Made by a program: the position numbers and the translations under genes. The notes under the pieces are model-generated. The model was not told where the DNA came from, made no database searches, and saw only the letters and a list, made by a program, of their open reading frames with translations. DNA of 62,826 nucleotides, the filler included, from Perkinsus olseni (taxonomy: Eukaryota), in the NCBI GenBank assembly GCA_013115125.1. It is 10 parts of 10 records of this genome, joined end to end, with 100 filler letters (N's around TTAATTAATTAA, not from the genome) between each part and the next. Parts side by side here need not be neighbours in the genome. Positions count along the whole stretch, not along the records: positions 44,170 to 50,329 come from JABANN010001120.1; 9 more parts are not named here. The stretch is one strand, 5' to 3'. Positions within the stretch are counted from its first letter, which is position 1; each line of letters opens with the position of its first letter. This document shows, piece by piece, positions 5,764 through 58,300 of the stretch.

Positions 5764-5903
5764 ACTAGCAACGCGACAGGGGCGTAAATGTAGGTGTGCT
5801 GCACTTAGGATCTACTTATAGGCTATAATGCAGGGTATCGATCACGCTATGAGCGTCGGCGCAATATACAGGCAACGGAGCGGAGATAGGGAGATCCCTT
5901 ACA
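5746..5903 (-). repeat. 5' LTR (158 bp)
   Basis: Direct repeat of 960-1117; followed on the minus strand by a TGG PBS-like sequence; contains the ORF ATG at 5763. Confidence 0.95.
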
Positions 5904-14851: not shown

Positions 14852-15721
14852 ATGGCTGCTAATGTGAATGAAGATCACAGCCACAAGGGCACCTTGCCAG
14901 CTTGCCCCCGATTCTCTGGGGAGAAGATTTCCCCTGAGGAGCCGTCCTCGAGTGTTGAACTCTTCCTTAAAAGACTTAATACATATCTGCAGGTGAGGGG
15001 CCTGCGGCGACCTCCTGTTGATGCACCCCTCGAAGATCGTCAGCAGTATAGTACGAAAGCGGCTGGTGTTCTCAAGATTGCCCTTGATGGTCGTGCGTCC
15101 CAGCTCGTGTATTCGTTGTCTGATGATCGGCAAGACAACTACGATGATCTTGTTGCTGCTTTGCGGTCAGCTTTCGGCTTGGGTAAGCTCAATGCCTGGC
15201 GAGCATTCTGTAGGCGTGAGATGAAGATTGATGAGGTTCCAGATTCGTTCTTGGCGGACCTCAGGACTCTTCTCGACATCAGCCTACCCAACATGCAAGC
15301 CGGGGCGAAGGAGACCATCCTCAGGGCCCAGTTTATTGCAGGGCTTCCGAGCAATACAGCAGCTCGTACTCTCGCCATTGCCAAGTCCGAGGATCTGCAT
15401 GTGACCTTGATTGATCTCCTTGAGTTGGTGAAGGATCACCTGAGAGCATCACGGGTAGATCCCTCTACACCTGAAGTTCTCGGTGCTGCTGGGGTTCCTT
15501 GGTTCACCGGTAAGAGTAACAAGGGCCGTAAGGGAGCAGGTCGTGCTGGGAAAGGCAAGGGCAAGGCTAGGTCAAGTCCAGGTGTGAGCACGTCTCCGAG
15601 CACGCGGGTCTGTTGGCACTGCCATGAACCTGGCCACTTCAAGTCTCAGTGCCCGCAGTTGAATCGATCGTCTACCTCGAGATCGGCGTCAAACCCTCCT
15701 GGGGGTCACACCCAACTGTAA
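14852..15721 (+). CDS. Gag with a CCHC zinc knuckle
   Basis: Retrotransposon gag pattern (LRAQFIAGLP) and knuckle CWHCHEPGHFKSQC. Confidence 0.88.
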   Translation: MAANVNEDHSHKGTLPACPRFSGEKISPEEPSSSVELFLKRLNTYLQVRGLRRPPVDAPLEDRQQYSTKAAGVLKIALDGRASQLVYSLSDDRQDNYDDLVAALRSAFGLGKLNAWRAFCRREMKIDEVPDSFLADLRTLLDISLPNMQAGAKETILRAQFIAGLPSNTAARTLAIAKSEDLHVTLIDLLELVKDHLRASRVDPSTPEVLGAAGVPWFTGKSNKGRKGAGRAGKGKGKARSSPGVSTSPSTRVCWHCHEPGHFKSQCPQLNRSSTSRSASNPPGGHTQL

Positions 15722-16203
15722 GGAGTGTGAAGAGTCCCCCTTACCGATTAGCTGCTGCGGCTGGTTCTGTTCACCCTAGTCTTGACTGCTCTGCACTCCC
15801 ACAGCGAGACTTCACTGTCATCACTGCGAATGAGGAGAAATGTTCTCTGAATGCTCTGTGTGACCCGTGCTGTGCTCGTACATTAGTATCTGCTTCGACC
15901 TTCAACTCCCTCAGCCTTCCCCTTCGCAATGATGTTTCGTCTTCTCTCATTACTCTCAGCGACCAAGTTTTGTCAAGTGTTGGTTCAGGTGACATCACTT
16001 TGACGGTAGATGGCAACAGCTGTACGGTGAATGCCCTTGTAGTGCCGCATTTACCAGGAAATCTACCTCTATTGGTCGGTGCTGATTTCTGGTCATCTTT
16101 CCCCAATCATTCGTTGAATCTCCACTACGCCGTCTGGTCATGTCGACACCAAGTTCATAGCTGCGGCTGCTGTGCCGAGCTCCTCAACAGTCAACAGATA
16201 TGA
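15649..16203 (+). CDS. Aspartic protease, -1 frame relative to gag
   Basis: ALCDPCCARTLV (DTG-equivalent motif) and the C-terminal LLVGADF motif; overlaps the gag 3' end. Confidence 0.75.
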   Translation: MPAVESIVYLEIGVKPSWGSHPTVRSVKSPPYRLAAAAGSVHPSLDCSALPQRDFTVITANEEKCSLNALCDPCCARTLVSASTFNSLSLPLRNDVSSSLITLSDQVLSSVGSGDITLTVDGNSCTVNALVVPHLPGNLPLLVGADFWSSFPNHSLNLHYAVWSCRHQVHSCGCCAELLNSQQI

Positions 16204-18943: not shown

Positions 18944-19082
18944 NNNNNNNNNNNNNNNNNNNNNNNNNNNNNNNNNNNNNNNNNNNNTTAATTAATTAAN
19001 NNNNNNNNNNNNNNNNNNNNNNNNNNNNNNNNNNNNNNNNNNNACGGCAACGGCAACCCTATCCGCCAATTTGCTGATGTCT

Positions 19083-23337: not shown

Positions 23338-26300
23338 TTGTCTATGCGTGGCATTCGACTTCCGGTTTTTCGTGAAAAAACTTAGTGAATTTCCTGAGAG
23401 AAAGTTTTCAGGAAAATATCAAGTTGATAGAGTCTTTCACGCATGATCGAGAGTTTTTGGCTCCTTCTGTACTATGAGTTTTATTTACTAGTACATGCGA
23501 GCACCCCTATGTCACTCACCGATAAATTTCGTTCGCCGACGAAGTTGAATCGACGAAAGGAGACCTCGTGCTCAAGTCCGGTAGAATTCAAGTGGCATCA
23601 TTGGTTCCGTTCAGTTGTTCTCGTCGGTATTCCGGGATGTCCGACTAAGAGTCGGCGACGGTTGGGAGGAGCTGCAAGAAGTCGGGTAAGTATTTCCAGA
23701 TTCGAGCCTTGAGAGTGTCAGTCAATCTGGGTCAGGGACTCTGAGACTATCGGACGTCCAACTGAAGACAGCGGCACTCGTTTGCAGAACAATTCATAAT
23801 GTAACTTTCTCATTATCAACAGGTTTGGGTTCGTAGTGGGCTGTTGCACTCGGACACGAAATGATCCCGTTGACTAAGCGACTCCTTTGACCAAGGTGAA
23901 CACAGACTCCTTGATTGGTGGCGTGACAGGCATACGCTGATAGAAATTAGTTGGCGCTTGTGATGTTAAAACCGCTGATCCTACCCTGCTCCGATGAGAG
24001 ACTTGCAATCGCTGATGATAAGAAGACCAAGGGTCAAGGATTGGTTCCAGAGGGCAAGGCTCGGGCGTTCTGTTCTCAATTAGCCAGTCTCCTAACACGC
24101 TTATTGGTGGCAGTGTAACCCGAGTACAAGGGCTAAAGGATTCTCTGTCGATGCCTGTCGGAAGCATGAGCATAGCGTGCAACAAGGAAGAGCTTGCTGT
24201 AGTCTTTGTACTCATACGTTGGACACAAGGGCAAGGGAGCTTGTGAGAAGGAACTTGGAGTTTAGTTATTGACAAGATTCGAACGGGCTGATGATTGAAT
24301 CCAATCATTGGATTCCAATGACCCGGAGTTGTCTCGTTCGGCCACAAGAATGACAGCGTCAGCAGCCTGAGGGACAAAACAGCTAGCAGCGCGGCCCTAA
24401 GCGCCTGCGTCTCGGTAAGAACAACACCACCAGCCTGGTCAGCCGCCGCTCCTTCAGCAGCCTCCCCAGAAGGTGGAGCATCGTCCACGACCTCGTCATC
24501 ATCCCAAGCCATAGACGCACAGTCAACCCGGAGTCTGGCCGCCCAGACCGTCGTCTTGTGCATGCGTGCATAGCTGATTCCCCACGAGAGAGTAAGCTAA
24601 GAAGGGGAGGAGGATCAGCTTTACACTCATTCTCGCTTCGCCTTGACTACGAGTAACAACGGAGAAGCAAGGGCATCATCATGTCGTCGGCACCTCCCGA
24701 AGTCCCCGATTGAAGAACGTGAGTCAGAGAGTCGTTGCAAGCAATGAACAAGATTGATGGACTGGTCTCCGAGGGTGACGTGGCGTAGCTCACGTCACGT
24801 GGATGGAGAGAACATCTCAAAAACCATTTTCGCTCAGAATTTGTTGAGCAGTTTGAAGTTTCTAGTGTTTTGCTGTTTAGTCGTCAATCTCCATCTGGTT
24901 GCCGTGCCGCCTCCCTGCGGTGACACGTGGCCCACGTGACGTGGGTCGCACCGATACTATATTCGTCACCATGTGGCCACTCTATTGCAGACAGCTCATC
25001 AGGCTGCACGTGCGAGCTCAGCGCCCTGTGTGATACTATCACACAGATAGTGCTAAAGGCGCATAATGAGCGAGGGCCGTCGGGCTTGGGGTGTCTGCAA
25101 CCTTTCGCTTGGCCAAGTATACGCGGAATTAAACCACGTCCTACTGACTGCACAACAATAACGACGGCTTCCACCAACAGCGGGAATAGTAATTCACACT
25201 TACACCGTCGGGGACAGCGACGCTATGACGGGACACGAGNNNNNNNNNNNNNNNNNNNNNNNNNNNNNNNNNNNNNNNNNNNNTTAATTAATTAANNNNN
25301 NNNNNNNNNNNNNNNNNNNNNNNNNNNNNNNNNNNNNNNTCTCGATTACAACTCGATACCCGAAGCAGCTCGGCCACTCGCCAAACGTGAGCTTGTTTGG
25401 CACTCATTGATTCCAACAATAATTCTGTTTCTTCTCAGAGGCGACTTTGGACTATGACCGCGATGACGATAGCATCGAGTTTTCAATTCCTGAAGTGATC
25501 AGCATCACGCTGCACAGGCCGAGCCCAAGTCGCAGCTAGAAGCGCTGAGCACACTTTCGCGTCTTCACGCGAATGGGCGACGTGTTGCAGCAGCAAGGCC
25601 TGCTGACACCCCCACAGTCGGGGCCCGACTTAGTCGGTGTATATCACTTCCCCCGGTTTTTATGACACTTTTTAACAAGCGTGGTTGGAGTGATATTTGA
25701 TATATCACAGATTTCGTTTATGTGAACTGCGTCGGATATAGATGAGGCGATCTGCTGTGCTGCGCTTGAGTATCCTCCAGTGGAGTGGCTCACGCTTAAT
25801 GCTGACGATTTATTCTTAACAGGTTGGCGTTATTATTTTTCAGAAAAGAATGCCGTGTTGAGTCAGTTCTGGGAAGGGAAGAGGCATCAACTAAAACCTG
25901 GTCTTGGCGATTGGACCGCGGAATGTCTTCTACATCTCCCCAGCAACCCAGCAGTAGTCATGAGCAGGTCATGGAAAACGAGACGTGTCTCTCGAACACT
26001 CCTCGTGTGAAGTGGATCAGGCATGTACAGTATACAGTGTAACTAGGCCCACTCCGGCGGTGGGTCTTGAGCATAACTGAGTCTTGGGGATGACTAATCC
26101 GCAAAACTCGGGTAGGCAACCGGAAAACTGGTGGGAATTCATTCGTGATAAGACATCACTGACGACGCACTGTTATGCTTTCCAAATGATCACTCTTGCT
26201 ACGCTCTTGGAGGATCGGTTTCTTGTGTGACGAAGACCGTCTTCCGACCCATCATTTCTTTCAATTTCTCCTGCATGAACGGCGCGAGCGGTTCAACGAC

Positions 26301-27882: not shown

Positions 27883-28370
27883 ATGATCCGTCTACTGCTA
27901 GTCCTTGGTCTCATCGACGGTCTCGCTGAGGGGTTGTCTCCTAACAGGGGGTCTACCAATGCGACTACTGGGAGCGGGGCCAACGCCGGTCAGACCCCAG
28001 ATGTGAGATTTGATGAGTGCCATGCCGCCTCAGATTGCAGTCTTTGTCGATCAGGAATATTGCCAATCGCTCTGTGGGTCGCCCCCAAGCTCCATATGTG
28101 GAGATAAGGGGTCGTACTGTAAACCATACGGTCCACCTCAGAATGGTCAAAGAGTCTGCCAGGGCTTGTAAGTGCATCCATCAACCGGGACCCTACGATG
28201 CGCCGATGCGTGGCTCCTCAGTTACTATTTACCGAATAACAGTATGTGCTACTTCGGACCATTCACGACTTCCAGTGAGTGCCCCGAGGAACATCCTGTC
28301 TTCTGTGGAGGGAATGCGACCACTACACCCGGGCCCACCCCAACGCCCACGACCGGGCCTACCCCAACGC
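27883..28370 (+). CDS. Secreted Cys-rich protein (GSYCK...VCQG domain) with a Pro/Thr stalk, truncated by a LINE insertion
   Basis: Signal peptide MIRLLLVLGLIDGLA. Spliced exons give DQEYCQSLCGSPPSSICGDKGSYCKPYGPPQNGQRVCQG-FYYLPNNSMCYFGPFTTSSECPEEHPVFC-GGNATTTPGPTPTPTTGPTPTP, with introns near 28003-28033 and 28169-28221. Confidence 0.7.
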
Positions 28371-28398
28371 CAGTTTTGTTGTGAACTTCTTCCTAAGA

Positions 28399-29859
28399 AT
28401 GTCACGTACCAACAACCGTCGTACCAACACCGCTACTGGCAGCCACGGTGGAGGAACTGCGGCTGGAGACGATCAGAGGATGGAGCATGAAGCGACCGAT
28501 GCAACCAGCAGGGTAGGAAAAACGGGAGTGGGGAAGGTTCGTAATCTTCCTGAGGAATTGCGCATAACGTATAGGGATAGTAATATCTCCCAGTTGCTTG
28601 ACTGGGTTGATACTACTATAGACTTTTTCACCAATAATGACCGTCATAGTTTACCTGTATATGGTAATAAAGGTATACATGAATGTATTGCGGAACTGAG
28701 GAGAAAATTTCTAGCTCTTACTGAGGGTGCTCTGCATCATCAAAAAGAGATAAGCAGAGTTACTGCAGAGTTAGCAGAGGAACGTAACAAAGTAAAAGTA
28801 GTCGGAGGGGGCGTGAAAAGAAGAAAACCATCGGTGGATGCATCTTCAGAAGCTAGTCTCGGTAGTTGGGGATCAGAAGAAAGCAGCCAATGGTCTGACG
28901 CGCTAGAAGGTAGAGAGAGGGCAGGCAACCTAGTTTTGAGAAACATGAGTAGTAGTAGCAGTAGCAATAACAATAATACTAATAATAATAACATTTGGCA
29001 GACAGTTGATAGAAATCGCAATAGAGGTAGGCAGAATAATAGGGACCATGGAGACATCTCACAGACTAGGAGGGGCTCTCCAAGTCCAGTAGAAAGAGAG
29101 AAATTTTCAGTCATCATCACAGACAAATCTAGAATAGCTCAGGATGGCACATGGCCCTTCTTGCCAGCAGAGGATGGCAGGAAACTAAGTGATGAACTTG
29201 ATAGTCTCTTAGAGAACCTAAGAATAAACGCATCATACGTTACTAGAGGTGGCGTAGCGATAGCATGCGATAGTAAAGATGAGATTGAAAAGGTTGAGAA
29301 GGCAATTAGGGAAAAAGAGAAGTATGTCATAAAACCTAACAGTGGACCAGACATAGTTATGAGGGTAATAATCCCAGCGGCGCATGGTGAAATATCGAAG
29401 AGAGGCGATATACTAGAACACATCGGTCGTAAAAATCAGACCGATTTGAGCTCATGCAAAGTTGTGAAGAGAACCCTTAGGGGCTCCTTATTGATAAAGG
29501 GGCCACGGAGGATCCTCGGTCCACTCATCGATCGTGGGCGAATCTTTATTTCGCTATTCAGCTGTACTGTGACTAAAGGGGCTCCAACCAGACTCTGCTA
29601 CCAGTGCGGAGGATACCACAATACGGGGCCTGGTCTACTGTGTGTGGAACCGGCAAAATGTGCCTCCTGTGGAGGTGCGCACCCGCTAAAATTGTGCAAG
29701 AATCCCCTTCCACAGACAAGGGATATGAATGACCCTGAACGTGTATGTTCAAATTGTGGGAAGGAAGGCCACGCGGCTCTGCAATATCTATGTAATCCCA
29801 TCATAAAGTTAGATGCTAGAGTTGGTGCTCCGGAACAAGTTTCCGGAGCTTCCCAATGA
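28399..29859 (+). CDS. LINE ORF1 (Gag-like nucleic-acid-binding protein)
   Basis: ATG at 28399 (MSRTNN); knuckles CYQCGGYH...C, CASCGGAHPLKLC and CSNCGKEGHAALQYLC. Confidence 0.85.
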   Translation: MSRTNNRRTNTATGSHGGGTAAGDDQRMEHEATDATSRVGKTGVGKVRNLPEELRITYRDSNISQLLDWVDTTIDFFTNNDRHSLPVYGNKGIHECIAELRRKFLALTEGALHHQKEISRVTAELAEERNKVKVVGGGVKRRKPSVDASSEASLGSWGSEESSQWSDALEGRERAGNLVLRNMSSSSSSNNNNTNNNNIWQTVDRNRNRGRQNNRDHGDISQTRRGSPSPVEREKFSVIITDKSRIAQDGTWPFLPAEDGRKLSDELDSLLENLRINASYVTRGGVAIACDSKDEIEKVEKAIREKEKYVIKPNSGPDIVMRVIIPAAHGEISKRGDILEHIGRKNQTDLSSCKVVKRTLRGSLLIKGPRRILGPLIDRGRIFISLFSCTVTKGAPTRLCYQCGGYHNTGPGLLCVEPAKCASCGGAHPLKLCKNPLPQTRDMNDPERVCSNCGKEGHAALQYLCNPIIKLDARVGAPEQVSGASQ

Positions 29860-31523
29860 TGCTCTCACGAAGAGCTTCTGTAAGTCATGGTAGTAATGAA
29901 GATGAGAGGAGGGATGACATCATTAGTAGTGATCAACGAATAGATGATAGCACTGGTAGCAATCAACAACTAGAGAATAGCACCGGTAGTAATCAACGCG
30001 TAGATGATAGTGTTGGTAATGGCAGCTATACAGACGATAGAACTGATAGTAACTCTCGGGTAAATGATATCACTGGTTGTAACATAAATTTTGCCACCTT
30101 CAACTGCTCTAGAAGCAGAGCAAATCTGGAATCGTGGTACCGGGACTATGGGTATAGGTGTGACGTGGCATGTATCCAAGAACCACCCGCTTTTCTTGGG
30201 CAAGTGTTCAATGATATGATAGTAGTATTTTGCTCCAGCAATCTAGAAGTAGACACAGCGGCAAGAGACTATACCAGGGCAGCAATACTGGTAAGGAGGG
30301 AAATCACAATTAAGAAAGTGAGGCCGAAGCCTGACTGTGTTAGTACGGATGTAACAACGAAGGATGGGGAATGTCTACGAGTCGTCAGCTTATATGCTGA
30401 CAAGAACCTCGACCCAGGGGACCTGTGTAGTTGTCTCGAAGGTCTACTAGAGGACAGAGAGTTCGACTACTTATTAGTAGCGGGAGATCTGAATGCATGT
30501 TCCTCTTGGTGGTGCTCCCCGCCACTATCGGATAACGACGAGAGGACCCGGAGGGGAGAAGTCTTTGAAGACTGCTTCCTGAGAATGAACCTAGCCCCAG
30601 TGAATGCTAACAAGGGTGTACCATCTTTCTACTCTGGAGGAAGGAGTAGTTACATTGATGCGATTCTAGCTTATGGGGTGACAGTTAATAAACCAGCGTA
30701 TGCACTTGATACGAGCGGTGACCATAGGACTCTTATGTGCGAAGTCCGGTGTGGAAACAGGGAGCTCGAAACAAGGAGCAAAAGGATCAACTATGTGAAG
30801 GTGGTGAACTGGGATGGTTTCATGGCACGGGTAGCCAACAAGACTCCACGCTTTATAAGAATGGATGATACGTCATCCATTGAACAAGCTGCAGTCAAAT
30901 TGAATGATGTCATTAGAGAAGCTATGCTGGAATCTTGTAAGGATACCAAGAACAAGAAACAAGCTAGAGAAAGACGCAAAAGCGGACAGGTCTGGTGGAA
31001 CAATGAGTTAGAAAAGAAAAGAAAAGCTCTGCGAAGAGAAGAAAAGGAAATGAGAAAGACTAAGAGGGGAGGGCTAACAGAGGGGGAAAGAGAGAGCCTT
31101 AGGAATCGTGTACGAATGGCGAAGAGAGATTATTTCAACAGCATCCACAGGGTGAAACGTGAATTTTATCAGCACAAGAGGAGCACTGCGACTTTCAAAG
31201 AACTGACTAGGAGCTTCAAGGTTAGCACTATAACAACGGAAGGGTATGAAGCGGAGAAGATAATAGACCGATTGCTCGACATAGGAGATGAAAGTTTATA
31301 TTCGCACCCGAGTAGATACGAAAAACAGTCAACGGAGCCTCTTGGCGGAGATGTTACACTGGAAGAAATCAGAAAAGCCGCCTCGAATTTCAAGAAAGGG
31401 AAAGCCCCTGGAAGCGACGAGATAGCTTATGAATTCATACAGATCGCTTGTGGAATCGAGAGATGGGTGGAAAAATTCAGAGTTTTGATCCAACGGATTC
31501 TGGAATTTGCATTTTATCCTAGC
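29856..31523 (+). CDS. LINE ORF2: AP endonuclease plus RT N-terminus (partial)
   Basis: APE motifs ATFNC, IQEP, SLYA, AGDLNA..SWW, SYIDAI and SGDHR; then VWWN and KAPGSDEI (pre-RT domain 0). The ATG overlaps the ORF1 stop (ATGA). Confidence 0.92.
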
Positions 31524-33341
31524 NNNNNNNNNNNNNNNNNNNNNNNNNNNNNNNNNNNNNNNNNNNNTTAATTAATTAANNNNNNNNNNNNNNNNNNNNN
31601 NNNNNNNNNNNNNNNNNNNNNNNGTCAGCTGCAGACATATACCTCTCAACTTATGTTGCGTTCCAACAGTAGTGCTTTGGAATCCGAGATGCTACAGGTG
31701 TCAACCCCAGTGCTCGCGAAAATTCCATCATTCATCCCCCCGGGGCGATGAACTGCAGTCGGCCAGTCATCGGCAGGCTGCCAATTATGCACGACAACCA
31801 GACGCCAACTTCTCTCGTAGGCAAAAACAACGCCCAAGTCAAACCGTCTGATTCAGACTATGTGCCACTTCACGAGAGAGGCACCACTGTTGCGTTGAAG
31901 GAGACGGCTCTAATGCAACATTGCCAGACAAGCGAGATATGGTCTATTCCGACCCGGAATTGACGGTCTACCGCCTCTCAGCTGTCTGGTGACTCAGGAT
32001 CCCCGAGCGTGACGATTCTTCATTCAAAAGGCCCTTCTATCCGCCATTGCCTGATGATTTAATGGCTCAAGAACGGTAAGGGGTGCTCGGCCGCAAGCCG
32101 GACAGAGAAGTTTCCACCTCAAGTTCGACTGATTATGTGGCATATGCTGATGAACAGGGGCCAACCTCTGCCCAGGCCTTGATCGGTTCCGTACCATAGG
32201 AGATGCACTCGGATTACGCCTCCGGCAAGGATCCGATTGATCTCGAACTCGAAGATGCCAACAAGGTCTCATGCTCTGACGATGATCTGATAGACTCATC
32301 ATTCGAGAAGGCGTACCTCTACCATCTAGTTTCAATATTGTCAAGGGGTGAGGTGCGAGTGTATTTTGGATTTGTGACGCGGCTTAACTCGATATTAAAG
32401 CCCAGCTTTACTAAAGCCCCATGACCGCTGATGGAAGGAATGCTCTTTTTATCAGTTGCCTTAGCATCAACGGCGAATACATGGCAATAAGCAGTACTAA
32501 GATTTATCACGCTATATGAGCGCACCTCCTATCGACTTTGTGGAGCGAGAAGTTCACCATCCGGAGGCCCTTTTTTGGGAATGCCAGGCAACTGCCGTGA
32601 CGAAACACTTCATTTCGCCCTTCTCGGTCACCTTGTTTTTCGCCGTTATTTTGGTAGAGCTGTTGATGTCTGTGTGCTGTGTACAAGAAGTGGTTTTGTT
32701 TCGTAGTTCCTAAACTCCCGACCACGGAATTCCAAAATAACTGCTAACGCTCGCAGCTCTTCAGCGAACCCGTGGGCACCTCATCGCGAGACCTCCGGTA
32801 GAGATCTCGCTTTCGAAAACCAATCGTTCAATCCGTACGGCAGACGTTCCCATAATCCTCAATCTAAAGCAGTCCGCTGGACCTTTACGAATCGCAGTCG
32901 TCCAATCGTGAGAGTCGAGTAATACTAAACCTCTGAGTGGACATGCAGATTCTGCATTGCAGAAGGCATTGCAGAAGGCCATCAGTGCGCAGAACCATAT
33001 CGTGCGTTCAGCAACGCCTAGGGAGAGGGTGCCAGAGTGCGAGAAGGACAGGTAGCTGATCTTCTGTGAACCCGATCACCGAGCCCGTGAACCATGGCGC
33101 TAGAAAACCAATCTCCTCCAAAGATCGATTTGTTGCTGAGGGATCAATTCAGCACCTAGGCTGTCGAAGGCGTAATGTGGGCACGTAGAATTCGAAGCAG
33201 CGTTTCGCAAGACTCGCCGAGACTTTTGAAACGGCCGGGCTAGCGAGGTCGACTCCGGTAAGGTGCGCTGTTCGACTATCCACAGAACTTGCTGTGCGTG
33301 AGGAGGTGAGCGTGTGTTATCACGTTCCTTATCAGTTCGGT

Positions 33342-37804: not shown

Positions 37805-37926
37805 NNNNNNNNNNNNNNNNNNNNNNNNNNNNNNNNNNNNNNNNNNNNTTAATTAATTAANNNNNNNNNNNNNNNNNNNNNNNNNNNNNNNNNNNNNNNN
37901 NNNNAGTACATGGTGCGTTTTTTCTC

Positions 37927-44069: not shown

Positions 44070-44325
44070 NNNNNNNNNNNNNNNNNNNNNNNNNNNNNNN
44101 NNNNNNNNNNNNNTTAATTAATTAANNNNNNNNNNNNNNNNNNNNNNNNNNNNNNNNNNNNNNNNNNNNACGGTTTCAGTGCAAGATACGTCGGCGCGAT
44201 CGCCATGGTCACTCACAGCAAATATCTGTCGCTTTGGTCATGCGAATGACACACTCCCGGGGAGCAGATATACAAGAAGTTAATTAGCAAAATGAGTATA
44301 TGAAAATATCACATATCAAGCAATC

Positions 44326-46860
44326 TTAGTCATCATCATCATTTAAATCCTCACCTTCTTCGTACTTGATGATGCGATTCTTGATGGACCGGGTGATACG
44401 GAGGGGGGACTTGTAGTGAATGTCGACGTCGCATATATACTTCTGGTCGATATAGTCGGTCAGAACTTCAACAGAGCCGTCGACATGCACCGATCTCAAG
44501 GCCATCTTCTTCAAGTCGGAGTCGTACTGACCGAACGCTCGATGTTCGCCTCCCTGGCTGTCGATCCACCGGAAGCAGTAGAAATCACCGTCCTCCATAT
44601 CCATTGTTGAGTCGTCTGGGCGAGTGGGAGTAGGAGACTGCTCAGTGACCGCATCATTGGCATGATACTGCTTGAGGTTGAAGCAGCACTCTTGGAACTT
44701 GAGCTGCGCACCAGTCTTGACATCCTGTAGACGGTATAGCAGGTGGTCATTGGATACGGCGACGACTCTGTATGGGCCCTTCCAGGAGACATCCTGCTTG
44801 AGGGGAGGAGGCACGAGACGTAGCACTAGTGATCCAACATCGAAGTGCTTGTAGCCGGACTGGCGGGGTAGCTTGGACGCTCTTGCTCGAGCCCTGTCCT
44901 TCGCTTCCTTGACCAGCGAGAAGAAGTCGAGAAGGCTCTTGGTACGACGCTCTTGTAGGTCGTCGTAGATGCTCTTTAGCTCATCGGGCATGGAAGGTGG
45001 CTGACCCTCCATGATGCTTGGTATCCAGCTCTCAAGCCTTGCTCGAGACCAATCCTCGAGATCCTCCGCGGGGGCAAGTAGTCGTGGTCGACGACAGTAG
45101 AAGAGTTGGAAAGCTGACAGCGTACCCAAGTCATGGCGGGGTGAACAGTTGATGGCATAGACAGCTTCCGAGATGGTCTCAGGCAGGGGGCGGGGCTGAT
45201 CCTCTTCTTGTAGTAACCGGTGGCGGAGCTGACTGAGTAGAACCCCATGTCCTCTCTCGTAGACGGCGGCGATGAACTTGGATTGCCGGGGGAATACTGT
45301 GAAGGCAATAGATCTCGTCACGCAGTATCCCTCGACGGCACGGCTTGTCATGGCCGACCCAGCGTCGACAGTGACGCAGGCGGGATCGCCTACGATGGAG
45401 AACAACTTGGTGAGAGATGAACATATGGAGGCTGCTGTAGGTGAAGTAGTGATGTCATGGAGTAGGAACCCTGATACCGGATCGGTGCAAGTTAGAACCC
45501 ATACCTTCTCATGAGAGACTGGGCAGCGGTACGGACCAGCATGATCGAGGCACCAAACTTGACCGATGTCGAAGCAGAGATGAGCTGGGCGTACGCAGCC
45601 AGCTCGCTTCTTGTAGCCAGATTGCTTCTTCGCTAATTGGCAGACATGACAAGTCTTCAGGAGACGAAGTAGAGCCACACGCAGTTTTGGGGTGTAGAAT
45701 GCCTCGTTGTAGAGTGACCTCAACTTGGGAGTGTTGTCATGGCCGAGCTTGTCGTGAAGAAGGTTCAGCACCTCATCACATCCTTCTCCCCGCGGCAGCA
45801 CTGGTCGGCATGCGACAGCGCCATTGCTGTCGCTCACACCAGTGTACAGAAGTAGCCCAGTATCAGGGCAGAGATGATACAGCCTTAGGTTGTGGGCGAC
45901 TTCAGTCGATGGTGTTGACTTGAGAGTGTCGATGATGGCCTTGGTACGGTCGTCATTCTGCTGGAACTGCACTAACTGGTCGTTGTTGAAGTGCTGAGCC
46001 ACGGAGACTGTATCGTAAAAGAGGACGTCGGAACCAGGAGATGCCCTTGGCGTGTGGACATGGGAGAGATTCTTGACATGGGCAGTGTTGACGCCACTCT
46101 CGATAACCGAGTCATCGAGAAGACTGGGTAGATGGCCGTCAATCCTGGGCCTGGAGCCGACGTCGGCAGGATTGGAGTCTCCCTCGATGTGGTAGGTGGT
46201 GACCGGTAGTTGTAGTGTGCTCGTGATGAAGTCAAGATCGGCCAGCCCTTTCTTCAGTGTCTTCTTCTCCAGGTTGGAGAGGGTCTTCCCGAAGTCACCT
46301 TTAGATGCTCGACGGAGACGGTAGAGTAATGCCTCGGAGTCGCAATACAGAGAGAGACATTTTATGGGGGTCTCGGTGGCGAACTTGGAGTAGAGAGTGA
46401 CGAGGGATGTTACGAGAGAGAGGCCGTCGAAGAAGGATACGAGTTCCTTCTTGGGGATGGACCAACGGGCTTGGCTTGTTCGAGTAGACCAGAGACGCCC
46501 CTTACCGACCAATTTGCGGTAGGCCGTGTTCCCGCCGGTGGTGGTCGGGCAGAGTACAGTTACGTGGCCGGCAGTGACGCTGGCGTCAGTGAAGACCAGT
46601 ACATTGCTGATGTCGACGAACCTAGGATGAGCCAGCTTGGCAGTGGTGAGAGCGCGACAGAAACCGAGAACGCTGGCGGCACCTTCGGGGTCGATGTTAG
46701 TGTCCCAAGGGTCTCGTGATTTCTCAGCACTCTTGTTGTCGTCGACGGCATAGTATGTGGCCATGAACAGTCTCAAGCAGAGAGAGAGCTCCGAGGCCAA
46801 ACCGAGAGGATCATACAGTCCTTGGCACAGGCTGAAGAGTTGACGACGGGTGATGCTCGA
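44326..46860 (-). CDS. Pao-type connection/RNase H - integrase (continuation after a homopolymer frameshift)
   Basis: ITRRQLFSLCQGLYDPLGL, VFTDAS, SIPKKEL, YCDSEALL and NPADVGSR. Integrase H..GH...CHVC, LDHAGPY, VDAG, YERGH and WKGPYRV. Confidence 0.88.
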   Translation of the reverse strand, partial: SSITRRQLFSLCQGLYDPLGLASELSLCLRLFMATYYAVDDNKSAEKSRDPWDTNIDPEGAASVLGFCRALTTAKLAHPRFVDISNVLVFTDASVTAGHVTVLCPTTTGGNTAYRKLVGKGRLWSTRTSQARWSIPKKELVSFFDGLSLVTSLVTLYSKFATETPIKCLSLYCDSEALLYRLRRASKGDFGKTLSNLEKKTLKKGLADLDFITSTLQLPVTTYHIEGDSNPADVGSRPRIDGHLPSLLDDSVIESGVNTAHVKNLSHVHTPRASPGSDVLFYDTVSVAQHFNNDQLVQFQQNDDRTKAIIDTLKSTPSTEVAHNLRLYHLCPDTGLLLYTGVSDSNGAVACRPVLPRGEGCDEVLNLLHDKLGHDNTPKLRSLYNEAFYTPKLRVALLRLLKTCHVCQLAKKQSGYKKRAGCVRPAHLCFDIGQVWCLDHAGPYRCPVSHEKVWVLTCTDPVSGFLLHDITTSPTAASICSSLTKLFSIVGDPACVTVDAGSAMTSRAVEGYCVTRSIAFTVFPRQSKFIAAVYERGHGVLLSQLRHRLLQEEDQPRPLPETISEAVYAINCSPRHDLGTLSAFQLFYCRRPRLLAPAEDLEDWSRARLESWIPSIMEGQPPSMPDELKSIYDDLQERRTKSLLDFFSLVKEAKDRARARASKLPRQSGYKHFDVGSLVLRLVPPPLKQDVSWKGPYRVVAVSNDHLLYRLQDVKTGAQLKFQECCFNLKQYHANDAVTEQSPTPTRPDDSTMDMEDGDFYCFRWIDSQGGEHRAFGQYDSDLKKMALRSVHVDGSVEVLTDYIDQKYICDVDIHYKSPLRITRSIKNRIIKYEEGEDLNDDDD

Positions 46861-49800
46861 GGGGGGTCATCAAGGTTAATGGCTTCGGGTACTCTAAAGG
46901 TGGGAGAGAACTCGTCACAGTCGTCACCAGTGCGCCAGCCATATCCAAGATACTTAGTGTCAGTGATTGGACCCCAGCTTGTACTGCGCTTAGGTAGGTT
47001 AGAGTGGAAGCCGTGACCAGATTGAGTGCCAGTGAAGGCGTTGGCCCTTCTCAAGGCGATCTCCTTCGTCTTCCCTCGAGTCTGACCGTCGTCCACATAG
47101 ATGGCAGTATGACGTTGAAGAGGGTCATGACAAGTGGTGACTGACGTCTTTGCCGTGATGGGAGAGTCCTTGCTGGCGAGTGGCATGGACCACAACTTCA
47201 TATTTTCCTCGAACTGAGAAATGAGGCTGTGGCAGACCGGGTCGGAGAGGACATCATCTCGAGAAGTGTGGCCGGACTCGAAATCTCTTAGAGTGATGAC
47301 GGCTCTGTTGGCTTGAAGCAGGGCTGATGGAGAGTATGTGGCACCGAAACAGGTAGAGACCCACATCCCAACTCGGCCGCATGCCACCATTCCAAAGTGG
47401 CGCCGATCAGTGGCGTCGTCTAGCTTGATTTGGTGGTAGGCTTTGGAGATGTCGTCGACCACTAGGGCGGGGGCGGTGCGACTCAGAGCCAAGTTACCCC
47501 ACAAAGTCTCGGGGTAGGTGGAGTCGTCCGCTTGTCGCCCGACCCTGAGGAAGCCGTTGTGGTATTTGCAGTCTAATACTAACCTGGTCTTCGACGTCTT
47601 CGAGCATTCCCTGAATACCGGGAAAGCTGGTATCAGTGTCGTGACCGAGGGAAGGGTGGGCTGGGCGTAGGCTGTGGTCGAAGGGTGGTCGGGGTTGTCG
47701 TTGGCGTTGGCGTTAGCATCGATGCGAGCAGGAACAACGAAGCCGAGAGAGTAGAGGTCGTTCACGACTTGATGGTAGCTTGAAGCCTCGGCGCTGTTGA
47801 GTCTGGCCATGACAGTAAAATCCCTCTTGATGGCAGCACCATTGTTGATGGGGGATGGCCTCGAGTCATCACGCCACGGGACCTTGCAGTGCAACCTGCC
47901 GCGAGGGGCTGTCTCTGAGGGGGGGTCGATGGAGAAGTCGAAGAGGTCATCTTCAGGCTTTGGAGAGTCCTCGCGGCTGGTGAACTGTACCCGAAAGGCG
48001 TCGATGGTTTGAGACCGGGTGAGACCCTTGATAATGCCGGTGTCTTCTTCCCGTGGTTCAGGAAAGAAGGATAGAGCCAGTGTTTCCCAAACATCGGCAG
48101 GGAGAGAAATGGTGTTGGGGTGAGTGTCGTCGTCATTAGTGCTGGCAACTGTGACCTCGCCGACCTTCGTCTGAGGAGCCATGATGTTGCAGAGCTCCGC
48201 GACAGCGCTATAGTGTATCGGTGACCTTGATGGATCGGCAAAAGGCTTGGGTACGCTCATCATTGGGATCGGCGGGCCACTCTGATTGTCGCCGAAGGTG
48301 ATGTAGTTGTCGTGTAGGTGCCAGATGGCCTTCAGCCGGCGAAGGAGTCCCACTGATAGTATCAGTCGATGAGCGCATCCGTCAAGCACGTAGAGATCTT
48401 CGGTGCAGTGGAAGCCATTGGAGAAGGATATAGGGACAGCCTTCGCCACACCACGAACAGTGGTCTCGGAGAGGTCGGCCAAGCGGATGCGAAGGTCGGC
48501 TTTGATGATGGTGAGGTTGAGAGATGCTGCTGCGCAGCTGCTGACCACGGATACAGCTGCTCCAGAGTCGACAAGGGCCGGTATGTGGTTGACGGAGTGA
48601 TTGATGTGAAGATTGATGAAACTGAGTGGTGGAGTATCAGTGGCCGGTGACGATCTCGACGAGGGGGTGGCTGATACTGCGGCGGCGACAGGTGCGGCGC
48701 AGGGTCGAAAACGACGACATGCTCGAGCAGCATGGTTCGCTTTGCCGCAACGCTCGCAGTTGCGACCGCGGTAGTTGTCGTGACCAGCAGGGCAGTGCAA
48801 TGAGTGGTGGTGGAGTAGGCCGCAGTAGTAGCATCTCTCATCTTTCCTTGTGAGATCCTCACAACACGCTATGGAGTCATGGGACTCGGAAAGACATCGT
48901 TGACACCGACTGGAGAGTATCTTGACATTGTATTCGTTGTTGAGGATGGCCGCGTCGTCTCTCACTCTCTGTCGGTATGGCGTTGATGGCCTGGTGGGGC
49001 GGGTCTTCTTGTCGCTCTTCTGTTGAGATCCTTCAGTCGTAGTAGTGGATGATGTAGCGGTTGCTTGTGGGGTGGAGAGCGCCGGGGATGGCGAGGTCGA
49101 CAATGCAACGTTGTTGACGGCAGCTGTGTCACTGGTAGGAGGAGAGGATTGCCAGTTCAGTTCACACCAGCCGGCACAGGTAGCCACGAGACCGTCATAG
49201 TTCATCCGCTTCTCCCCCACGTTGTAGCCGAGCTGGACGCAGTGAGATTGGAGGGCCTTGGGAAGAGACAGGTAGAGATGAACACGGACTTCTGCTTGAG
49301 TAAGGGCTTCGACTCCTCTGGCTTGAGCAAGCTGAGATGCCACGACCTCGAAACGGGTGATGTAGTCGTCCCAGTGGATGTCTGGAGTCAGCTTCAACTC
49401 TCGCCAGCGGCACTCCAGGGAGTCTAAGTTGTGCTTGTCGAAGCAGGCAGAAAGATGAGACCATTGGCGCTGAGTAGCTTCCTTCCAGTAGGCAGAGTGT
49501 GGATCTTGGGCAAGTTCCTCGAGCTGGCCATAGTCTTGCTTGACCTCCCACAAGTCTAGCCTTTGCACGATGAAAGGGGCGTAAGCTTGCCTCGTCAAGA
49601 AGTACTGGGTGCAAGGCGGGGACCATTTGTAGGACATGCTAGTCGTCACCAGCTGTCGACTCTCAGCGAAGGTTCTCTTGCTGGAGTCGCGCGAGCCACA
49701 CCATAGCGTCTTGCCAGGAAGAAGGCTGCCAATAGTTTGGGCTTGAGTGATGCAGTCTTGTACCGAAGGCCTTCGAGACACGACATTGATGGCTTGCTCA

Positions 49801-50327
49801 TGATGTCGATGGTTACCATGATTGATGGGTATGCTGTTGCCATTGCCGTGAGATCTCGTCGGAGAATGTGGTATAGGCTGTATCGCTCCAGAGGTGCGAA
49901 AGGAATGCACTCGGGGAGACTCAATAAGCTCTTCGTCGCCGTGCCTGCCCGTGTTGACTTCAGACGGGGAAGGAAGGCGGATCGATAGCTCTCGAGTAGT
50001 CCTCGCAGCAGGGTTGACAGAGAAAAATTCTCCCGAAGTAGGAGAACGATGAATGAAACTTGAGCCTTTCGGGGCGTTGACGGCGGGGTTGACCGTACAG
50101 GGTTCTCCAGGAGGGGAGAGAGGGTAAACCGAAGGTGGGCCTCTGACGTTATTGTTGTCGGCGGCGTTGATAGGATAGGTTTCTCCCGAAGGAGGGAAAT
50201 GATGGATGGCAGGTGGACCTCTGGTGTCGTTGGCAGCGGAGTTGACCGGATGGGCTTCTCCCGAAGGAGGGAGAGGATGGACAGAAGGTAAGCCTCTGGG
50301 GTCGTTGACAGCGGGGTTGACCGGATA
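46773..50327 (-). CDS. Gag (Pro-rich repeats, three CCHC) - protease - RT; open to the scaffold end
   Basis: The frame is open upstream of the annotated GTG at 49910. Knuckles CQRCLSESHDSIAC, CYYCGLLHHHSLHC and CERCGKANHAARAC; protease ALVDSGA; RT KTSKTRLVLD, DDISKAYHQI, CFGATYSP and YVDD. Confidence 0.88.
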   Translation of the reverse strand, partial: YPVNPAVNDPRGLPSVHPLPPSGEAHPVNSAANDTRGPPAIHHFPPSGETYPINAADNNNVRGPPSVYPLSPPGEPCTVNPAVNAPKGSSFIHRSPTSGEFFSVNPAARTTRELSIRLPSPSEVNTGRHGDEELIESPRVHSFRTSGAIQPIPHSPTRSHGNGNSIPINHGNHRHHEQAINVVSRRPSVQDCITQAQTIGSLLPGKTLWCGSRDSSKRTFAESRQLVTTSMSYKWSPPCTQYFLTRQAYAPFIVQRLDLWEVKQDYGQLEELAQDPHSAYWKEATQRQWSHLSACFDKHNLDSLECRWRELKLTPDIHWDDYITRFEVVASQLAQARGVEALTQAEVRVHLYLSLPKALQSHCVQLGYNVGEKRMNYDGLVATCAGWCELNWQSSPPTSDTAAVNNVALSTSPSPALSTPQATATSSTTTTEGSQQKSDKKTRPTRPSTPYRQRVRDDAAILNNEYNVKILSSRCQRCLSESHDSIACCEDLTRKDERCYYCGLLHHHSLHCPAGHDNYRGRNCERCGKANHAARACRRFRPCAAPVAAAVSATPSSRSSPATDTPPLSFINLHINHSVNHIPALVDSGAAVSVVSSCAAASLNLTIIKADLRIRLADLSETTVRGVAKAVPISFSNGFHCTEDLYVLDGCAHRLILSVGLLRRLKAIWHLHDNYITFGDNQSGPPIPMMSVPKPFADPSRSPIHYSAVAELCNIMAPQTKVGEVTVASTNDDDTHPNTISLPADVWETLALSFFPEPREEDTGIIKGLTRSQTIDAFRVQFTSREDSPKPEDDLFDFSIDPPSETAPRGRLHCKVPWRDDSRPSPINNGAAIKRDFTVMARLNSAEASSYHQVVNDLYSLGFVVPARIDANANANDNPDHPSTTAYAQPTLPSVTTLIPAFPVFRECSKTSKTRLVLDCKYHNGFLRVGRQADDSTYPETLWGNLALSRTAPALVVDDISKAYHQIKLDDATDRRHFGMVACGRVGMWVSTCFGATYSPSALLQANRAVITLRDFESGHTSRDDVLSDPVCHSLISQFEENMKLWSMPLASKDSPITAKTSVTTCHDPLQRHTAIYVDDGQTRGKTKEIALRRANAFTGTQSGHGFHSNLPKRSTSWGPITDTKYLGYGWRTGDDCDEFSPTFRVPEAINLDDPPRASPVVNSSACAKDCMILSVWPRSSLSA

Positions 50328-51359
50328 AGNNNNNNNNNNNNNNNNNNNNNNNNNNNNNNNNNNNNNNNNNNNNTTAATTAATTAANNNNNNNNNNNNNNN
50401 NNNNNNNNNNNNNNNNNNNNNNNNNNNNNGTCGTGCCAGATGATATGGTACTGCTGGGGATGAGAATGTCTTGAGTGTTTAACTATCAGGCCGCGAGTGA
50501 TGATGAAATAATTTCAAGGACCTTATTATAAAGTCCTTATATCTTCGTGTCTGAAGGCCTTACTGAGACCGTCCTAGAGTAAGTCTCATAGATATTATAA
50601 TATGAGGGATTAGCCAGTGGTTTCGCGCCATACATTTTCTTCGATTTCAGGAATAAGAGTGGCGAGGCGGTCCGACGAATACCGATGCTCTGTCTACAAT
50701 GTAGACAGAGCAATGTGGAGTCCACATTGTGGACTCTACATCCAATAATCGAACGGGGAATCTGTGACAGATTATCTGTCGAGCTCCGAGGGCGAAGCCA
50801 GGAAGCCGTTGGGATCTGAGCCTCAGTTAAGTCCAGAGATGAGCTTGCGACGCGAGTTTTGTGCTCGGTCCATAATCGGTCCATTGGCGACGACAATACG
50901 CCTATGTTCAAGGACCTTGAACATAGGCGTATTGTCGTCGCCAAAGGTCGACCTTGAATCAAGGTCCGTAACAGCAGAGCTCCTAGAAAGAATAAGCCAT
51001 CTACCGACGGCTACTGCAACTATATCTGTTGCCAGCACGTTGCGTGCGGGGTACAACTTCAGGCAATTTTGGACTGTTCTATTGAACAAACTCGGGTCAG
51101 AATTTACAGAAATCGTGAGTTACACAGTGTACACAGCAACGTGAGAGTGTAACTTACACTCTCACGTTGCTCGCCAAACAGCCGTCGAGGAGTCGCCGAC
51201 TGATGAAGGTGCCGCTGGCGGTAAGAAGTACGTCAAGGTCCCGGCTCACCTGGACCTGGCTATGGAGCAGGCTAGTGTTCTACTAGTTGGAAAAACCTAC
51301 GAGGTAGTTCGAACTCATCACACCGAAAGTGCTCGTTACCACTAAGATGCAAAAAAGTG

Positions 51360-55330: not shown

Positions 55331-58300
55331 ATATTGGGCGCTGTTGTATGTTATATGGTCGCATTAATCTTGCCTGTTCGTGAAGGCACGCATTGGCTTA
55401 GGTCCCAGGAGCGTTCTGATGGTGATACTAACGACTGATGCCATCAGTCTGATGGTTCGGTCTGTATATCACCTAGCTACCAGGGCGCGGAGGGTGGCTA
55501 GGATATACCATTTGTTATCGAGTTAGTCTGGAGTTCATAGTCATCATTCTTTCCTTCGTTTACGTTTATGCTAACGCTCGTTCAAAACTGCCCATTACCA
55601 ATATGCGCTTTCTTGTGATTGATAGCCGCGCATGTGTCATCTGCTCTCTCGTTTTGGGGGGATTGGTGACGTTACTTCGAAAGAAGAGGTGCGGGTGCTC
55701 TGCCAAGGCTCCTTGTCTCTCCTACATTCGTCTGCGGCCTGCTACTCCTTGCTACTGCCAAGTCGCCTCTATTCCAATTTGAAATTTTCAAATCGCGTCA
55801 TCCTGGGATCGCGTTGAGGAGGGCTCGACGGACCTCTTCATGAGAGGCTCTCACGCGTCGTGTTGTGACAGAGACTGAAGAACGTTCAGCATCATGGAAT
55901 ATCCAGCAGACGAAGGATCAAATCCTCAACGCTCTTGTGCCACGACTCGGGCTGACTAGCGAATGGCCTTCGCTCGAAGTCACTTCTTCACTGTGAAGAA
56001 AATTCTCTCCGTTCTCGAGTCTTTCCCCGTTCACGTTCGACCTCTCCGAACTTCAGTAGGAACACACTGGTGGTGTGACACGGGTGGTGAGGACCTGATG
56101 GATCTGTTTCTCATTGCCCTCTGTTGATGGGGCACGGCTCCTCACGGTATCGTCCTCGCTGTGAATTAGTGGGCAATAGATTCCTGAGTTGTGAAAGAGT
56201 TGGTATCGGGGGTCATCCGGTCAGCGGATTCCCGTGTGTACTGCCGTACTGGTAGTGCCTGGTGCGTATAGCGAGCCACTACAGCTGAAAAATGGGCTTC
56301 AAGTGGTTTCATCCAGCTGCCTGGGAGACTATCTGCATTCCAATGAGAGCGCCGAATCCCCTCCACTCGTCGCCAAGGGTCATGTCGTCCACCAAGGGAC
56401 TTCGCTTCCGCACCATGGATCACGTAAGTTGCCACTGGGGGGGGGGGGGGGGGGGGGGGGGGTTTGCCCCGGGGGGGGGGGCGGCGGGGGCCGCTTTTTG
56501 GGTTTGCCCAACGCCCCCCCCTGAAACCCCCCCCCGCCCCCCCCCCCCAACCCCCGGGACATGCGCCCGAACCCCCCCCCCNNNNNNNNNNNNNNNNNNN
56601 NNNNNNNNNNNNNNNNNNNNNNNNNTTAATTAATTAANNNNNNNNNNNNNNNNNNNNNNNNNNNNNNNNNNNNNNNNNNNNAGTATCACTCTCATTTCCT
56701 AATGGTTAACTCCGTAGTCAATGACGCCCTTGAGTTAGCACTGGGAAGACTCGATCTTGAGCCAAGAGACACCACACAACACTTCAACTCGTAGAAACAC
56801 TATTCCGCAGGCATGGGGGAGCCTGAAGGATGCGGACACACGATTCGGTTGATCGTGTCGTATATCCTATCAGACTCGACATCTTCTCCACTCAGCTGGG
56901 CCACCGTAGCCCCCTGCTGACGGAACTCGATAAGAGGCACACCTTCAACGGCCGTCCGCCAAGGCACAGCGCCGGCAGTACTGACAACGAGAGGGATGCT
57001 CGGACAGAGTTAGTGAAGAGATGGTACTCACCTGAGCGTGCTGGGCAAGATGTCCTGCGAGACTTGAGCGTCCCCGATGTCACGAGCTTCCTCGAAGTAA
57101 GAGTGGTAAATCTGAAGGATCGGCAAGAGCTGCTATGAGCTCACGACTAGATGTCGATACCTTGCTGAGTAAACTGACCATCTCCTCTACTGACAGGCTG
57201 GCCTGCTGATGTAGTACGGCTCTGTGAGCTAGTGATGAGTCGGTGACCCGCCGTTGCCACGATAGATTGAGGCCTGCCGACCAAGCTGTATCAAAGACGA
57301 CTGCAGCGGACAGCGTGCAGCAGATATCGATTATCCGAAGGCGACATAAACCATTGCTACACAAAGGCCCTTCTAATGCCACCGACGCCCGTCCGAGTGT
57401 TGAGCGAAGCGTCAGAGCTCTAAATGGGTGGGACAGACGTATGACAGGTGAACTTACCGAGGTCCTGCGCTGCGGCAAGGCTTGCGTTGTGGCTGGGATC
57501 TTGTAAAAAGCTTCGGTCGACTCCGTAGGCCTCGGACAGGTAGTCCAACACCTACAATGACTCCTCACAGACGACTCTAGTCAGACACACAGCACGAGTT
57601 GCCCTTTTGGCGGCGTTTTCATTGGCTGCTCATAGACACTGTAAGGCTCGTGGAACAGCTGTAGCTGAGGAGGGCTCGAGGAGGAGCTCTTCACTTTGTC
57701 GAGTGCTCGGGTAAGTTGGACGTGGCCAACTGAAAGCGCTGGTACGTTTGCAGTGGTCGGAGCAGGAGCCTACTGTAGCACCACGGGCACACGAAGTCCG
57801 ATACCATTGAGATGACTAGTTGCCTTGATGAGCTCATAGGTGTTGAGGAAAACTACGGAGAAGTCTCACAATGGCCAACATAACAATTGAATGGAATATG
57901 GTGAACTCAGTAGAAAATCGTCAGTGTACGATGATGAGGTTTGATGTCGTCTTTGATGGCCTCGCCTTCTTGCCACAACAACCAGTCCAAAGTCACGTCG
58001 AAGATGTCACTCCGCTTCGTGGCCTCCGCTATACGATGGCATGCATGGATCGTACCTGGGCGACGGTTGCACACGGCTGCTGCAGTCTGGTCACAGTAGT
58101 AGGCTCTGCACGAGCCAGTAGCGGGAAATGAGCATTCCCGAAGTCCTACAGGCTCTGATCTCAAGCTCCGTTCTACTCCCCGCAGCTATCGGCTCTCTCG
58201 AGTCTACTATCTCACAGAGTGCCGGACTGTAGACGAGAATGCCTTTATGTCGTAGCAACTGAGGGACCTGAAAATTAGCACAGCACAGCAATGGCACGAC

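Follow-up and report, generated by a model that had tools for sequence, protein, structure and literature searches.

A Perkinsus contig that probably carries the interior of a deep-branching BEL/Pao-like retrotransposon

Textbook descriptions and those of the international virus taxonomy committee (ICTV) tie the BEL/Pao retrotransposons (Belpaoviridae) to animals. The classical elements, which are placed in the genus Semotivirus of this family and divided into the clades Pao, BEL, Tas, Sinbad and Suzu (PMC2774666, PMC3118150), are given as animal elements only in the family accounts of PMC2774666 and PMC8742986, the latter of which calls them 'metazoan-infecting', and de la Chaux and Wagner surveyed 62 genomes, all of them animal (PMC3118150). 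Deep BEL-like diversity is already known in outline: Lescot et al. described five deep 'BEL environmental clades' (BEC1–5) from Tara Oceans plankton metagenomes and gave no hosts for them (PMC5029228). In the literature that we searched, whose scope excluded Repbase and the Bogema et al. genome paper on Perkinsus, no protist was named as a host of BEL/Pao and, by title or abstract, no paper concerned a BEL/Pao or Pao-type retrotransposon of Perkinsus. Here, we analysed a window of 62826 nucleotides of Perkinsus olseni DNA, by which we mean the whole stretch examined, and we describe a long terminal repeat (LTR) retroelement on one of its unplaced contigs (44170–50329, 6,160 bases, no strand assigned). 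We consider it probable, at about 0.72, that this contig is the interior of an LTR retrotransposon that is young, resides in the Perkinsus nuclear genome (Alveolata, Perkinsozoa) and comes from a deep BEL/Pao-like lineage outside the classical animal elements. The LTR retrotransposons of Plasmodium gallinaceum, P. relictum and Eimeria, which also live in myzozoan parasites, resemble it in having CCHC, protease, reverse transcriptase (RT), ribonuclease H (RNase H) and integrase parts; unlike it, and in a comparison by description only, they were classed as Ty3/Gypsy by their authors (bioRxiv 10.1101/086504).

The retrotransposon interior takes up the whole contig. It lies on the minus strand throughout, encodes gag, protease, RT, RNase H and integrase parts followed by 145 residues of C-terminal tail, and is read in two frames. 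The first, for gag, protease and RT, runs for 1,185 codons without a stop (46776–50329) and is open at the contig end, with the start of gag missing; the second, for RNase H, integrase and the tail, has 846 codons (44329–46866) and ends at a stop codon at 44326–44328. Together they carry the full set of catalytic motifs, and this set and the frame lengths are far beyond chance. All eleven motifs named in a first, sequence-only reading of this DNA (hereafter the original prediction) are present in the two frames at the place it gave. The span it assigned to the element, 44326–47650, does contain those motifs and is too short, as the unit continues to 50329 with protease and gag. The order protease, RT, RNase H and integrase (48285–48620, 46884–47669, 46093–46857 and 44764–45777, respectively) is that of classical BEL/Pao elements and also that of Ty3/Gypsy.

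The RT (46884–47669) scored 99 bits, with an E-value of 3.7e-30, against a profile built from 17 relatives that bear the Pfam family Peptidase_A17 (hereafter A17), and it contains KTSKTRLVLD (47571–47600), DISKAYHQI (47427–47453), FGATYSP (47328–47348) and YVDD (47088–47099), with an insertion of ~70 residues separating the last two. The RNase H region (46093–46857) is of BEL/Pao type, scored 146 bits against the relatives' profile and has the acidic motifs FTDAS (46579–46593), SIPKKEL (46441–46461), YCDSEA and NPADVGSR (46150–46173); TRRQLFS (46831–46851) and LYDPLGL (46798–46818) lie in the same RNase H/integrase frame. The integrase consists of a zinc-binding HHCC domain (HDKLGH ... CHVC, 45625–45777; Integrase_H2C2, E 2.3e-7, 31.3 bits, cut-off 25.5), a catalytic core (45244–45564; rve, E 8.5e-7, 29.6 bits, slightly below the cut-off of 32.6) and a C-terminal module with the GPY/F-like motif WKGPYRV (44764–44784). 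Its DD35E residues are the D of DHAGP (45532–45546), the D of VDAGS and the E of YERGHG, the last two being 35 residues apart as counted in the translation.

Family assignment was approached through Pfam matches, sequence searches, profile comparisons and trees. Peptidase_A17 (PF05380), which the original prediction had proposed as a check, matched the RNase H region at 46339–46851 with an E-value of 2e-10 and 41.3 bits (cut-off 22.3), over profile positions 1–161 of 162. Majorek et al. identify PF05380 as the RNase H of Bel/Pao elements and describe it as patchily distributed in eukaryotes (PMC3985635). Neither RT_RNaseH nor RT_RNaseH_2 gave a Pfam match in the element at E <= 1.

An exhaustive phmmer search of the second frame against 1.84 billion representative proteins, a collection that includes NCBI genomes, returned 623 proteins at E <= 1e-3. 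PF05380 was found in 43 of the best 96 matches scanned with Pfam (28/46 plus 15/50), and the long polyproteins among these bearers mostly have the architecture RVT_1 + A17 + H2C2 + rve. Two of the 43 (P0079 and P0081) carry DUF5641 and have A17 scores of 144–146 bits; the remaining 41 score 28.9–63.5 bits, comparable to the 41.3 bits of the window element. Because its A17 score and its lack of DUF5641 match those 41 relatives, the element appears to belong with a large non-classical A17-bearing assemblage, distinct from the classical animal elements. The unnamed polyproteins of this kind without DUF5641 (P0011, P0013, P0015, P0026 and others) share with the element the RVT_1 + A17 + H2C2 + rve architecture, the RT, RNase H and integrase motifs, including WxGP, and the best profile scores for all three domains, and they differ from it in being 24–39% identical to it. 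Our guess is that they may equal the Tara clades BEC1–5, with which they are equated by description only. A local phmmer search with the window RT gave 20 non-self matches, every one of them (20/20) with an A17-type RNase H, and the Gypsy-type proteins in the set went unmatched; the Atlas clusters nearest to the RT part were generic RVT_1 clusters, which do not discriminate.

RT, RNase H and integrase were excised from the collected proteins with profiles from the 17 A17-bearing relatives, and classical references came from a search that started from a BEL/Pao protein of a fly and yielded arthropod elements with A17, DUF1759 and DUF5641. The element's family was then compared by hhalign with the A17 relatives, classical BEL/Pao and Gypsy, respectively, giving scores of 161.7, 49.7 and 22.5 for RT (Gypsy probability 2.4%), 317.9, 147.7 and 42.7 for RNase H, and 331.2, 114.2 and 281.8 for integrase. 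By these scores, RT and RNase H are remote from Ty3/Gypsy, whereas the integrase, with its HHCC, DD35E and GPY/F parts, resembles Ty3/Gypsy over 324 columns and is only distantly similar to classical BEL/Pao, over 220 columns.

The RT tree comprised 73 rows and was obtained by a quick search, with 14 classical, 20 Gypsy and 2 retroviral rows (Copia RT was absent from the RT trees). It separated the A17 bearers, including the window element, together with the classical rows, from Gypsy and retroviruses with a Shimodaira–Hasegawa-like approximate likelihood ratio test (SH-aLRT) support of 100, and a further tree split A17-bearers from Gypsy and retroviruses at an SH-aLRT of 99. In the RT+RNase H tree (46 rows, 531 columns, careful search), the partial relatives P0004, P0016 and P0010 were added to shorten the long branch. 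Here, the element and these three formed a family with ultrafast bootstrap/SH-aLRT values of 100/99, the classical BEL/Pao clade obtained 100/100 and the Gypsy clade 99/99, and the A17-bearers, with the element and the classical elements on the same side, were split from Ty3/Gypsy and retroviruses at 100/100; the bootstrap of this tree had not fully settled (correlation 0.983). Across three trees, the element fell outside the sampled classical clade, whose support without the element was 99–100 (7 to 14 rows, mostly arthropod), and the Gypsy clade left it out at 98–99. We read the element as BEL/Pao-like and outside the sampled classical crown, with support that is good but not complete because the approximately unbiased (AU) tests described below do not fix its position. 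The BEL/Pao-type RT/RNase H of the original prediction is thus upheld by the PF05380 match, the profile comparisons and the trees, and of the two origins it had offered, a sister lineage with intermediate features fits better, with the element outside the sampled classical clade and its integrase profile nearer to Gypsy than to classical BEL/Pao.

Several observations weigh against this reading. In the AU test on RT alone, the tree with the window RT on the Gypsy/retrovirus side of the long branch lay 3.83 log-likelihood units above the quick free tree (p 0.654), and RT alone cannot separate a position inside the A17 assemblage from one as sister to all of it. On RT+RNase H, holding the family with Gypsy cost 29.9 log-likelihood units and was not rejected (p 0.114). 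The classical reference rows were nearly all from arthropods, and the named Tas, Sinbad, Suzu, Flow and Dan references were not among them. Classical BEL/Pao signatures apart from A17 are missing from the element, because RVT_1, DUF1758, DUF1759 and DUF5641 had no Pfam match in it at E <= 1; the classical references carry DUF1759 in gag, DUF1758 in the protease and DUF5641 at the integrase C-terminus (P0079 and P0081 were checked by Pfam scan), and the A17 score is 41 bits in the element versus 144–146 bits in the classical elements. The host was assigned from the names of two relatives and one organism label. Finally, no LTRs were found on the contig 44170–50329, where the direct repeats were the 75-base repeats of gag only, and neither a primer binding site nor a target duplication was found there.

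The host nonetheless appears to be the Perkinsus nuclear genome, in line with the non-metazoan host of the original prediction and in contrast with the animal hosts of classical BEL/Pao elements. Among 5.8 billion clusters, two proteins matched, namely P0004 from Perkinsus olseni, with 95–96% identity, and P0003 from Perkinsus chesapeaki, with 81%. The other near matches, among the 1.84 billion representatives, were the fragments P0005, P0006, P0012 and P0017 (51–84% identity), and beyond these near-copies (51–96%) no protein in that collection exceeded 39% identity. Among the listed public runs holding the contig, 10/10, from 4 studies, bear one and the same organism label. Contigs of four runs cover the element, and their half-depth variant blocks point to several copies or alleles; the contig word depth over the element body was ~80–340 in run X1 and 90–195 in run X2, values that are not convertible to copy number. 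None of the listed runs was marked as RNA; X9 may be one, by a guess. As a separate observation, P0005 (708 residues) has the appearance of a fused gene model, in which residues 382–708 are 74% identical to second-frame residues 524–846 and the first ~380 residues align with nothing in the element.

The original prediction raised animal-host contamination and horizontal transfer from an animal. Contamination by animal-host DNA and a recent transfer are both unlikely, because three assemblies of the same genus show graded identity and no animal gave a close match, the best match beyond the near-copies being 39% identical. An ancient horizontal transfer is an unlikely course of events that still deserves weight: an element from an animal, such as a mollusc host, would have entered Perkinsus or its ancestors and would now represent a displaced animal BEL/Pao branch, not an old protist lineage. 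In favour of this, Perkinsus resides within the cells of bivalves, BEL/Pao elements are described from animals only in the accounts cited above (PMC2774666, PMC8742986), and some of the 36 A17-bearing relatives around the element in the RT tree may be animal; the RT sequences of the large size fractions of Tara plankton were mostly assigned to metazoans (PMC5029228). The nearest Atlas clusters were likewise A17+DUF5641 clusters of Chordata and Arthropoda. Against such a transfer, the element does not nest within the classical clade as sampled (100/100 without it), and the 39% ceiling on identity holds among representatives that include NCBI genomes. Moreover, a protein difference of ~19% separates the P. 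chesapeaki copy from that of P. olseni, in keeping with descent inside the genus.

We judge it improbable that the element branches deeply from the Ty3/Gypsy side and has simply retained an ancient A17-like sequence in its RNase H, a reading under which the term BEL/Pao-like would be wrong. This reading draws on the AU test on RT+RNase H, on the integrase profile, which scores far higher against Gypsy than against classical BEL/Pao, and on a first integrase tree, in which the window copy and the P. chesapeaki copy grouped with Gypsy and retrovirus at an SH-aLRT of 96. Against it, RT scored 22.5 with Gypsy (probability 2.4%) and 161.7 with the A17 relatives, and RNase H 42.7 and 317.9, respectively, the Gypsy-type RNase H families gave no match, and the Gypsy clade excluded the element in three trees; the integrase–Gypsy grouping, moreover, was lost after P0007 and P0008 had been added. 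An RT firmly within Ty3/Gypsy, the outcome that the original prediction had named as speaking against itself, was therefore not seen, although a position on the Gypsy stem stays unrejected at p 0.114. Separately, eight of the collected proteins (P0050, P0060, P0108, P0118, P0124, P0125, P0132 and P0150) are Gypsy-type polyproteins with the integrase upstream of RT, an unusual order reported for Gmr1-like elements (PMC2774666).

The integrase also bears on a recombinant, in which a BEL/Pao RT–RNase H would have been combined with an integrase taken from a Ty3/Gypsy element, much as the original prediction described a Gypsy-like integrase tail joined on. This is a very doubtful alternative. The first integrase tree and the integrase profile speak for it in the same way as above, as does the list of Kojima (2025), which gives the GPF/Y motif as characteristic of Gypsy, Retroviridae, Odin and Ginger1 and leaves BEL out (PMC12440569). 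By contrast, Llorens et al. (2009) report the GPY/F module in Bel/Pao integrases (PMC2774666), and WxGP, in the form WxGPxxV, occurs in the consensus of 17/17 aligned A17-bearing relatives. The A17 relatives as a whole have an integrase profile that reaches 408.3 with Gypsy and 228.2 with classical BEL/Pao, and P0007, at 34% identity, has the same RNase H–integrase pairing as the element. Once P0007 and P0008 had been added to the tree, the family left Gypsy and fell, weakly (80), among the A17 lineages, with a Gypsy and retrovirus clade formed without it (94). The first grouping was due to a long-branch effect, and a Gypsy origin of the integrase, which that tree had suggested, was dropped. 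The Gypsy likeness is thus real, yet common to the A17 relatives and not special to this element, and the simplest reading would be an older, Gypsy-like integrase from which the classical animal BEL/Pao integrase has diverged.

That the contig is animal-host DNA or another contaminant of the assembly can be set aside as highly improbable: it is a short unplaced contig without flanking host genes, and BEL/Pao elements are common in animals, yet related copies occur in annotated P. olseni and P. chesapeaki assemblies with graded identity (95–96% and 81%), all ten listed runs share one organism label, no close animal match was present among the 1.84 billion representatives, and the other contigs of the window are likewise repeats of similar G+C content.

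Under the preferred reading of a deep BEL/Pao-like element resident in Perkinsus, the predicted mechanism is the ordinary LTR-retrotransposon cycle. As judged from the domains, gag with its three CCHC knuckles would package the transcript, the aspartic protease would cleave the polyprotein, RT (YVDD) and the BEL/Pao-type RNase H would copy RNA into DNA, and the HHCC/DD35E integrase with its GPY/F-like module would insert that DNA. The element would descend from a broad BEL/Pao-like assemblage defined by an A17-type RNase H, as a deep lineage that retained an integrase resembling that of Ty3/Gypsy. New in this picture are a named non-animal host for a deep BEL/Pao-like branch and a nearly intact element in Perkinsus. 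The suggested contrast between an older, Gypsy-like GPY/F integrase and a derived animal BEL/Pao integrase is relevant to the divergence of the LTR retroelement families.

We further advance, tentatively and as something short of probable, that the BEL/Pao type is not an animal invention. On this proposal, alveolate protists such as Perkinsus would harbour an ancient A17-RNase H lineage that has evolved slowly and has a Gypsy-like integrase. This lineage would probably also correspond to the plankton BEL clades, and the classical animal elements, whose integrase C-terminus has diverged (DUF5641), would be one derived branch of it. If true, the origin of the Belpaoviridae lineage would predate animals, and a culturable, transfectable protist host would be gained. 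Perkinsus, a parasite of oysters and clams, is amenable to axenic culture and transfection. Transgene integration in this genus may be affected by an element that has several copies and long open frames, and transposon-linked integration is mentioned for P. marinus (PMC8062965).

The N-terminal end of the gag frame contains tandem 75-base repeats (50001–50329, minus strand), corresponding to 25-residue repeats, in 4 copies with 61–100% identity, and the contig breaks within them. The number of these repeats differs between copies; at 50001–50329, a contig of run X9 steps back by 75. The nucleocapsid part of gag contains three zinc knuckles of the form CX2CX4HX4C, located with a regular expression at 48717–48905 on the minus strand (first-frame residues 476–489, 500–513 and 525–538). 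Gag of classical BEL/Pao elements has CCHC knuckles as well; they are common to other LTR families and thus do not discriminate (PMC12440569). The aspartic protease (48285–48620) was recognised from its active-site motif LVDSGA (48558–48575) and from weak Pfam matches, all below the Pfam cut-offs (Asp_protease_2, E 4.3e-4; Asp_protease, E 7.8e-4; RVP_2, E 5.8e-3).

Between RT and RNase H, the reading changes frame by one base at a run of six C on the minus strand (46861–46866), where the two frames overlap. The P. olseni protein P0004 has a continuous reading across this site (...NLDDPPSSITRRQLF...), and among the public runs the X1 contig has the window's state and the X9 contig one extra letter. 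Because P0004 reads through and the X9 contig has that extra letter, the break is a difference between copies and not part of the element's design. Sister copies are uninterrupted at the site, and the unbroken form of the element is one long polyprotein. The window copy, with its single frame change, is accordingly likely to be dead or reliant on other copies. A programmed frameshift at the six-C run was considered, as a backward slip would yield the protein of the P. olseni copy. It was not adopted as the main reading, since copies with another run length exist as DNA or contigs and the run is not known as a canonical slippery site.

The C-terminal tail (44329–44763, minus strand) sets the element further apart from classical BEL/Pao and has no recognised fold. 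The original prediction had noted an unexplained tail after WKGPYRV of about 100 residues; the tail is there, with a counted length of 145 residues. It is 50–64% identical to P0003, P0005 and P0017 and conserved among the closest copies only, and it gave no Pfam match at E <= 1. An AlphaFold model computed from an alignment of four close sequences had four weak strands and a mean predicted local distance difference test (pLDDT) score of 40.5. A chromodomain, as a Ty3/Gypsy trait, had no Pfam match after the integrase at E <= 1, and the tail model, at that pLDDT, is too poor for comparison. That the tail may be a targeting domain is a guess.

The window (1–62826) is a chain of ten contigs, each of ~6.2 kb, sorted from longest to shortest and separated by nine linkers of the form N44-TTAATTAATTAA-N44, at 6275–6374, 12639–12738, 18944–19043, 25240–25339, 31524–31623, 37805–37904, 44070–44169, 50330–50429 and 56582–56681; the chain looks like an 'unplaced contigs' pseudomolecule. 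The element's contig is the eighth of the ten, between the linkers at 44070–44169 and 50330–50429. Because these linkers are artificial, the adjoining contigs tell nothing of the genomic setting of the element, and findings in this window that lean on neighbour genes across a linker are unsound. A comparison within the window gave no DNA-level similarity between the element's contig and the other nine, which are also repeats and have a similar G+C content. One limit of the contig lies inside gag and the other 156 bases past the stop codon. In these 156 bases (44170–44325, minus strand), a reading by eye recognised neither an LTR nor a polypurine tract, and by similarity comparison the stretch is not repeated elsewhere in the contig or the window.

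Other contigs of the window hold further retroelements. On the first contig, a second LTR retroelement (1260–5811, minus strand) has a gag frame with CCCH-type zinc fingers in place of CCHC knuckles (zf-CCCH_4, E 2.9e-12), followed by a protease, a weak RVT_1 match and Integrase_H2C2, and its RNase H region scored 51 bits (E 2e-15) against the profile of the A17 relatives. It is surrounded by LTR-like direct repeats at 599–927 and 5906–6234, each of 329 bases and 94% alike, and may represent a second, more distant BEL/Pao-like family of the same genome. A third retroelement (14792–18943, plus strand) has a weak CCHC knuckle, DUF7047, Integrase_H2C2 and rve_3, with weak matches to the A17 relatives' profiles for RT (52 bits) and for integrase (73 bits). 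Finally, two long frames were found at 28279–31523 on the plus strand, the second of which contains an endonuclease domain of the kind seen in non-LTR retrotransposons (Exo_endo_phos_2, E 1.6e-9).

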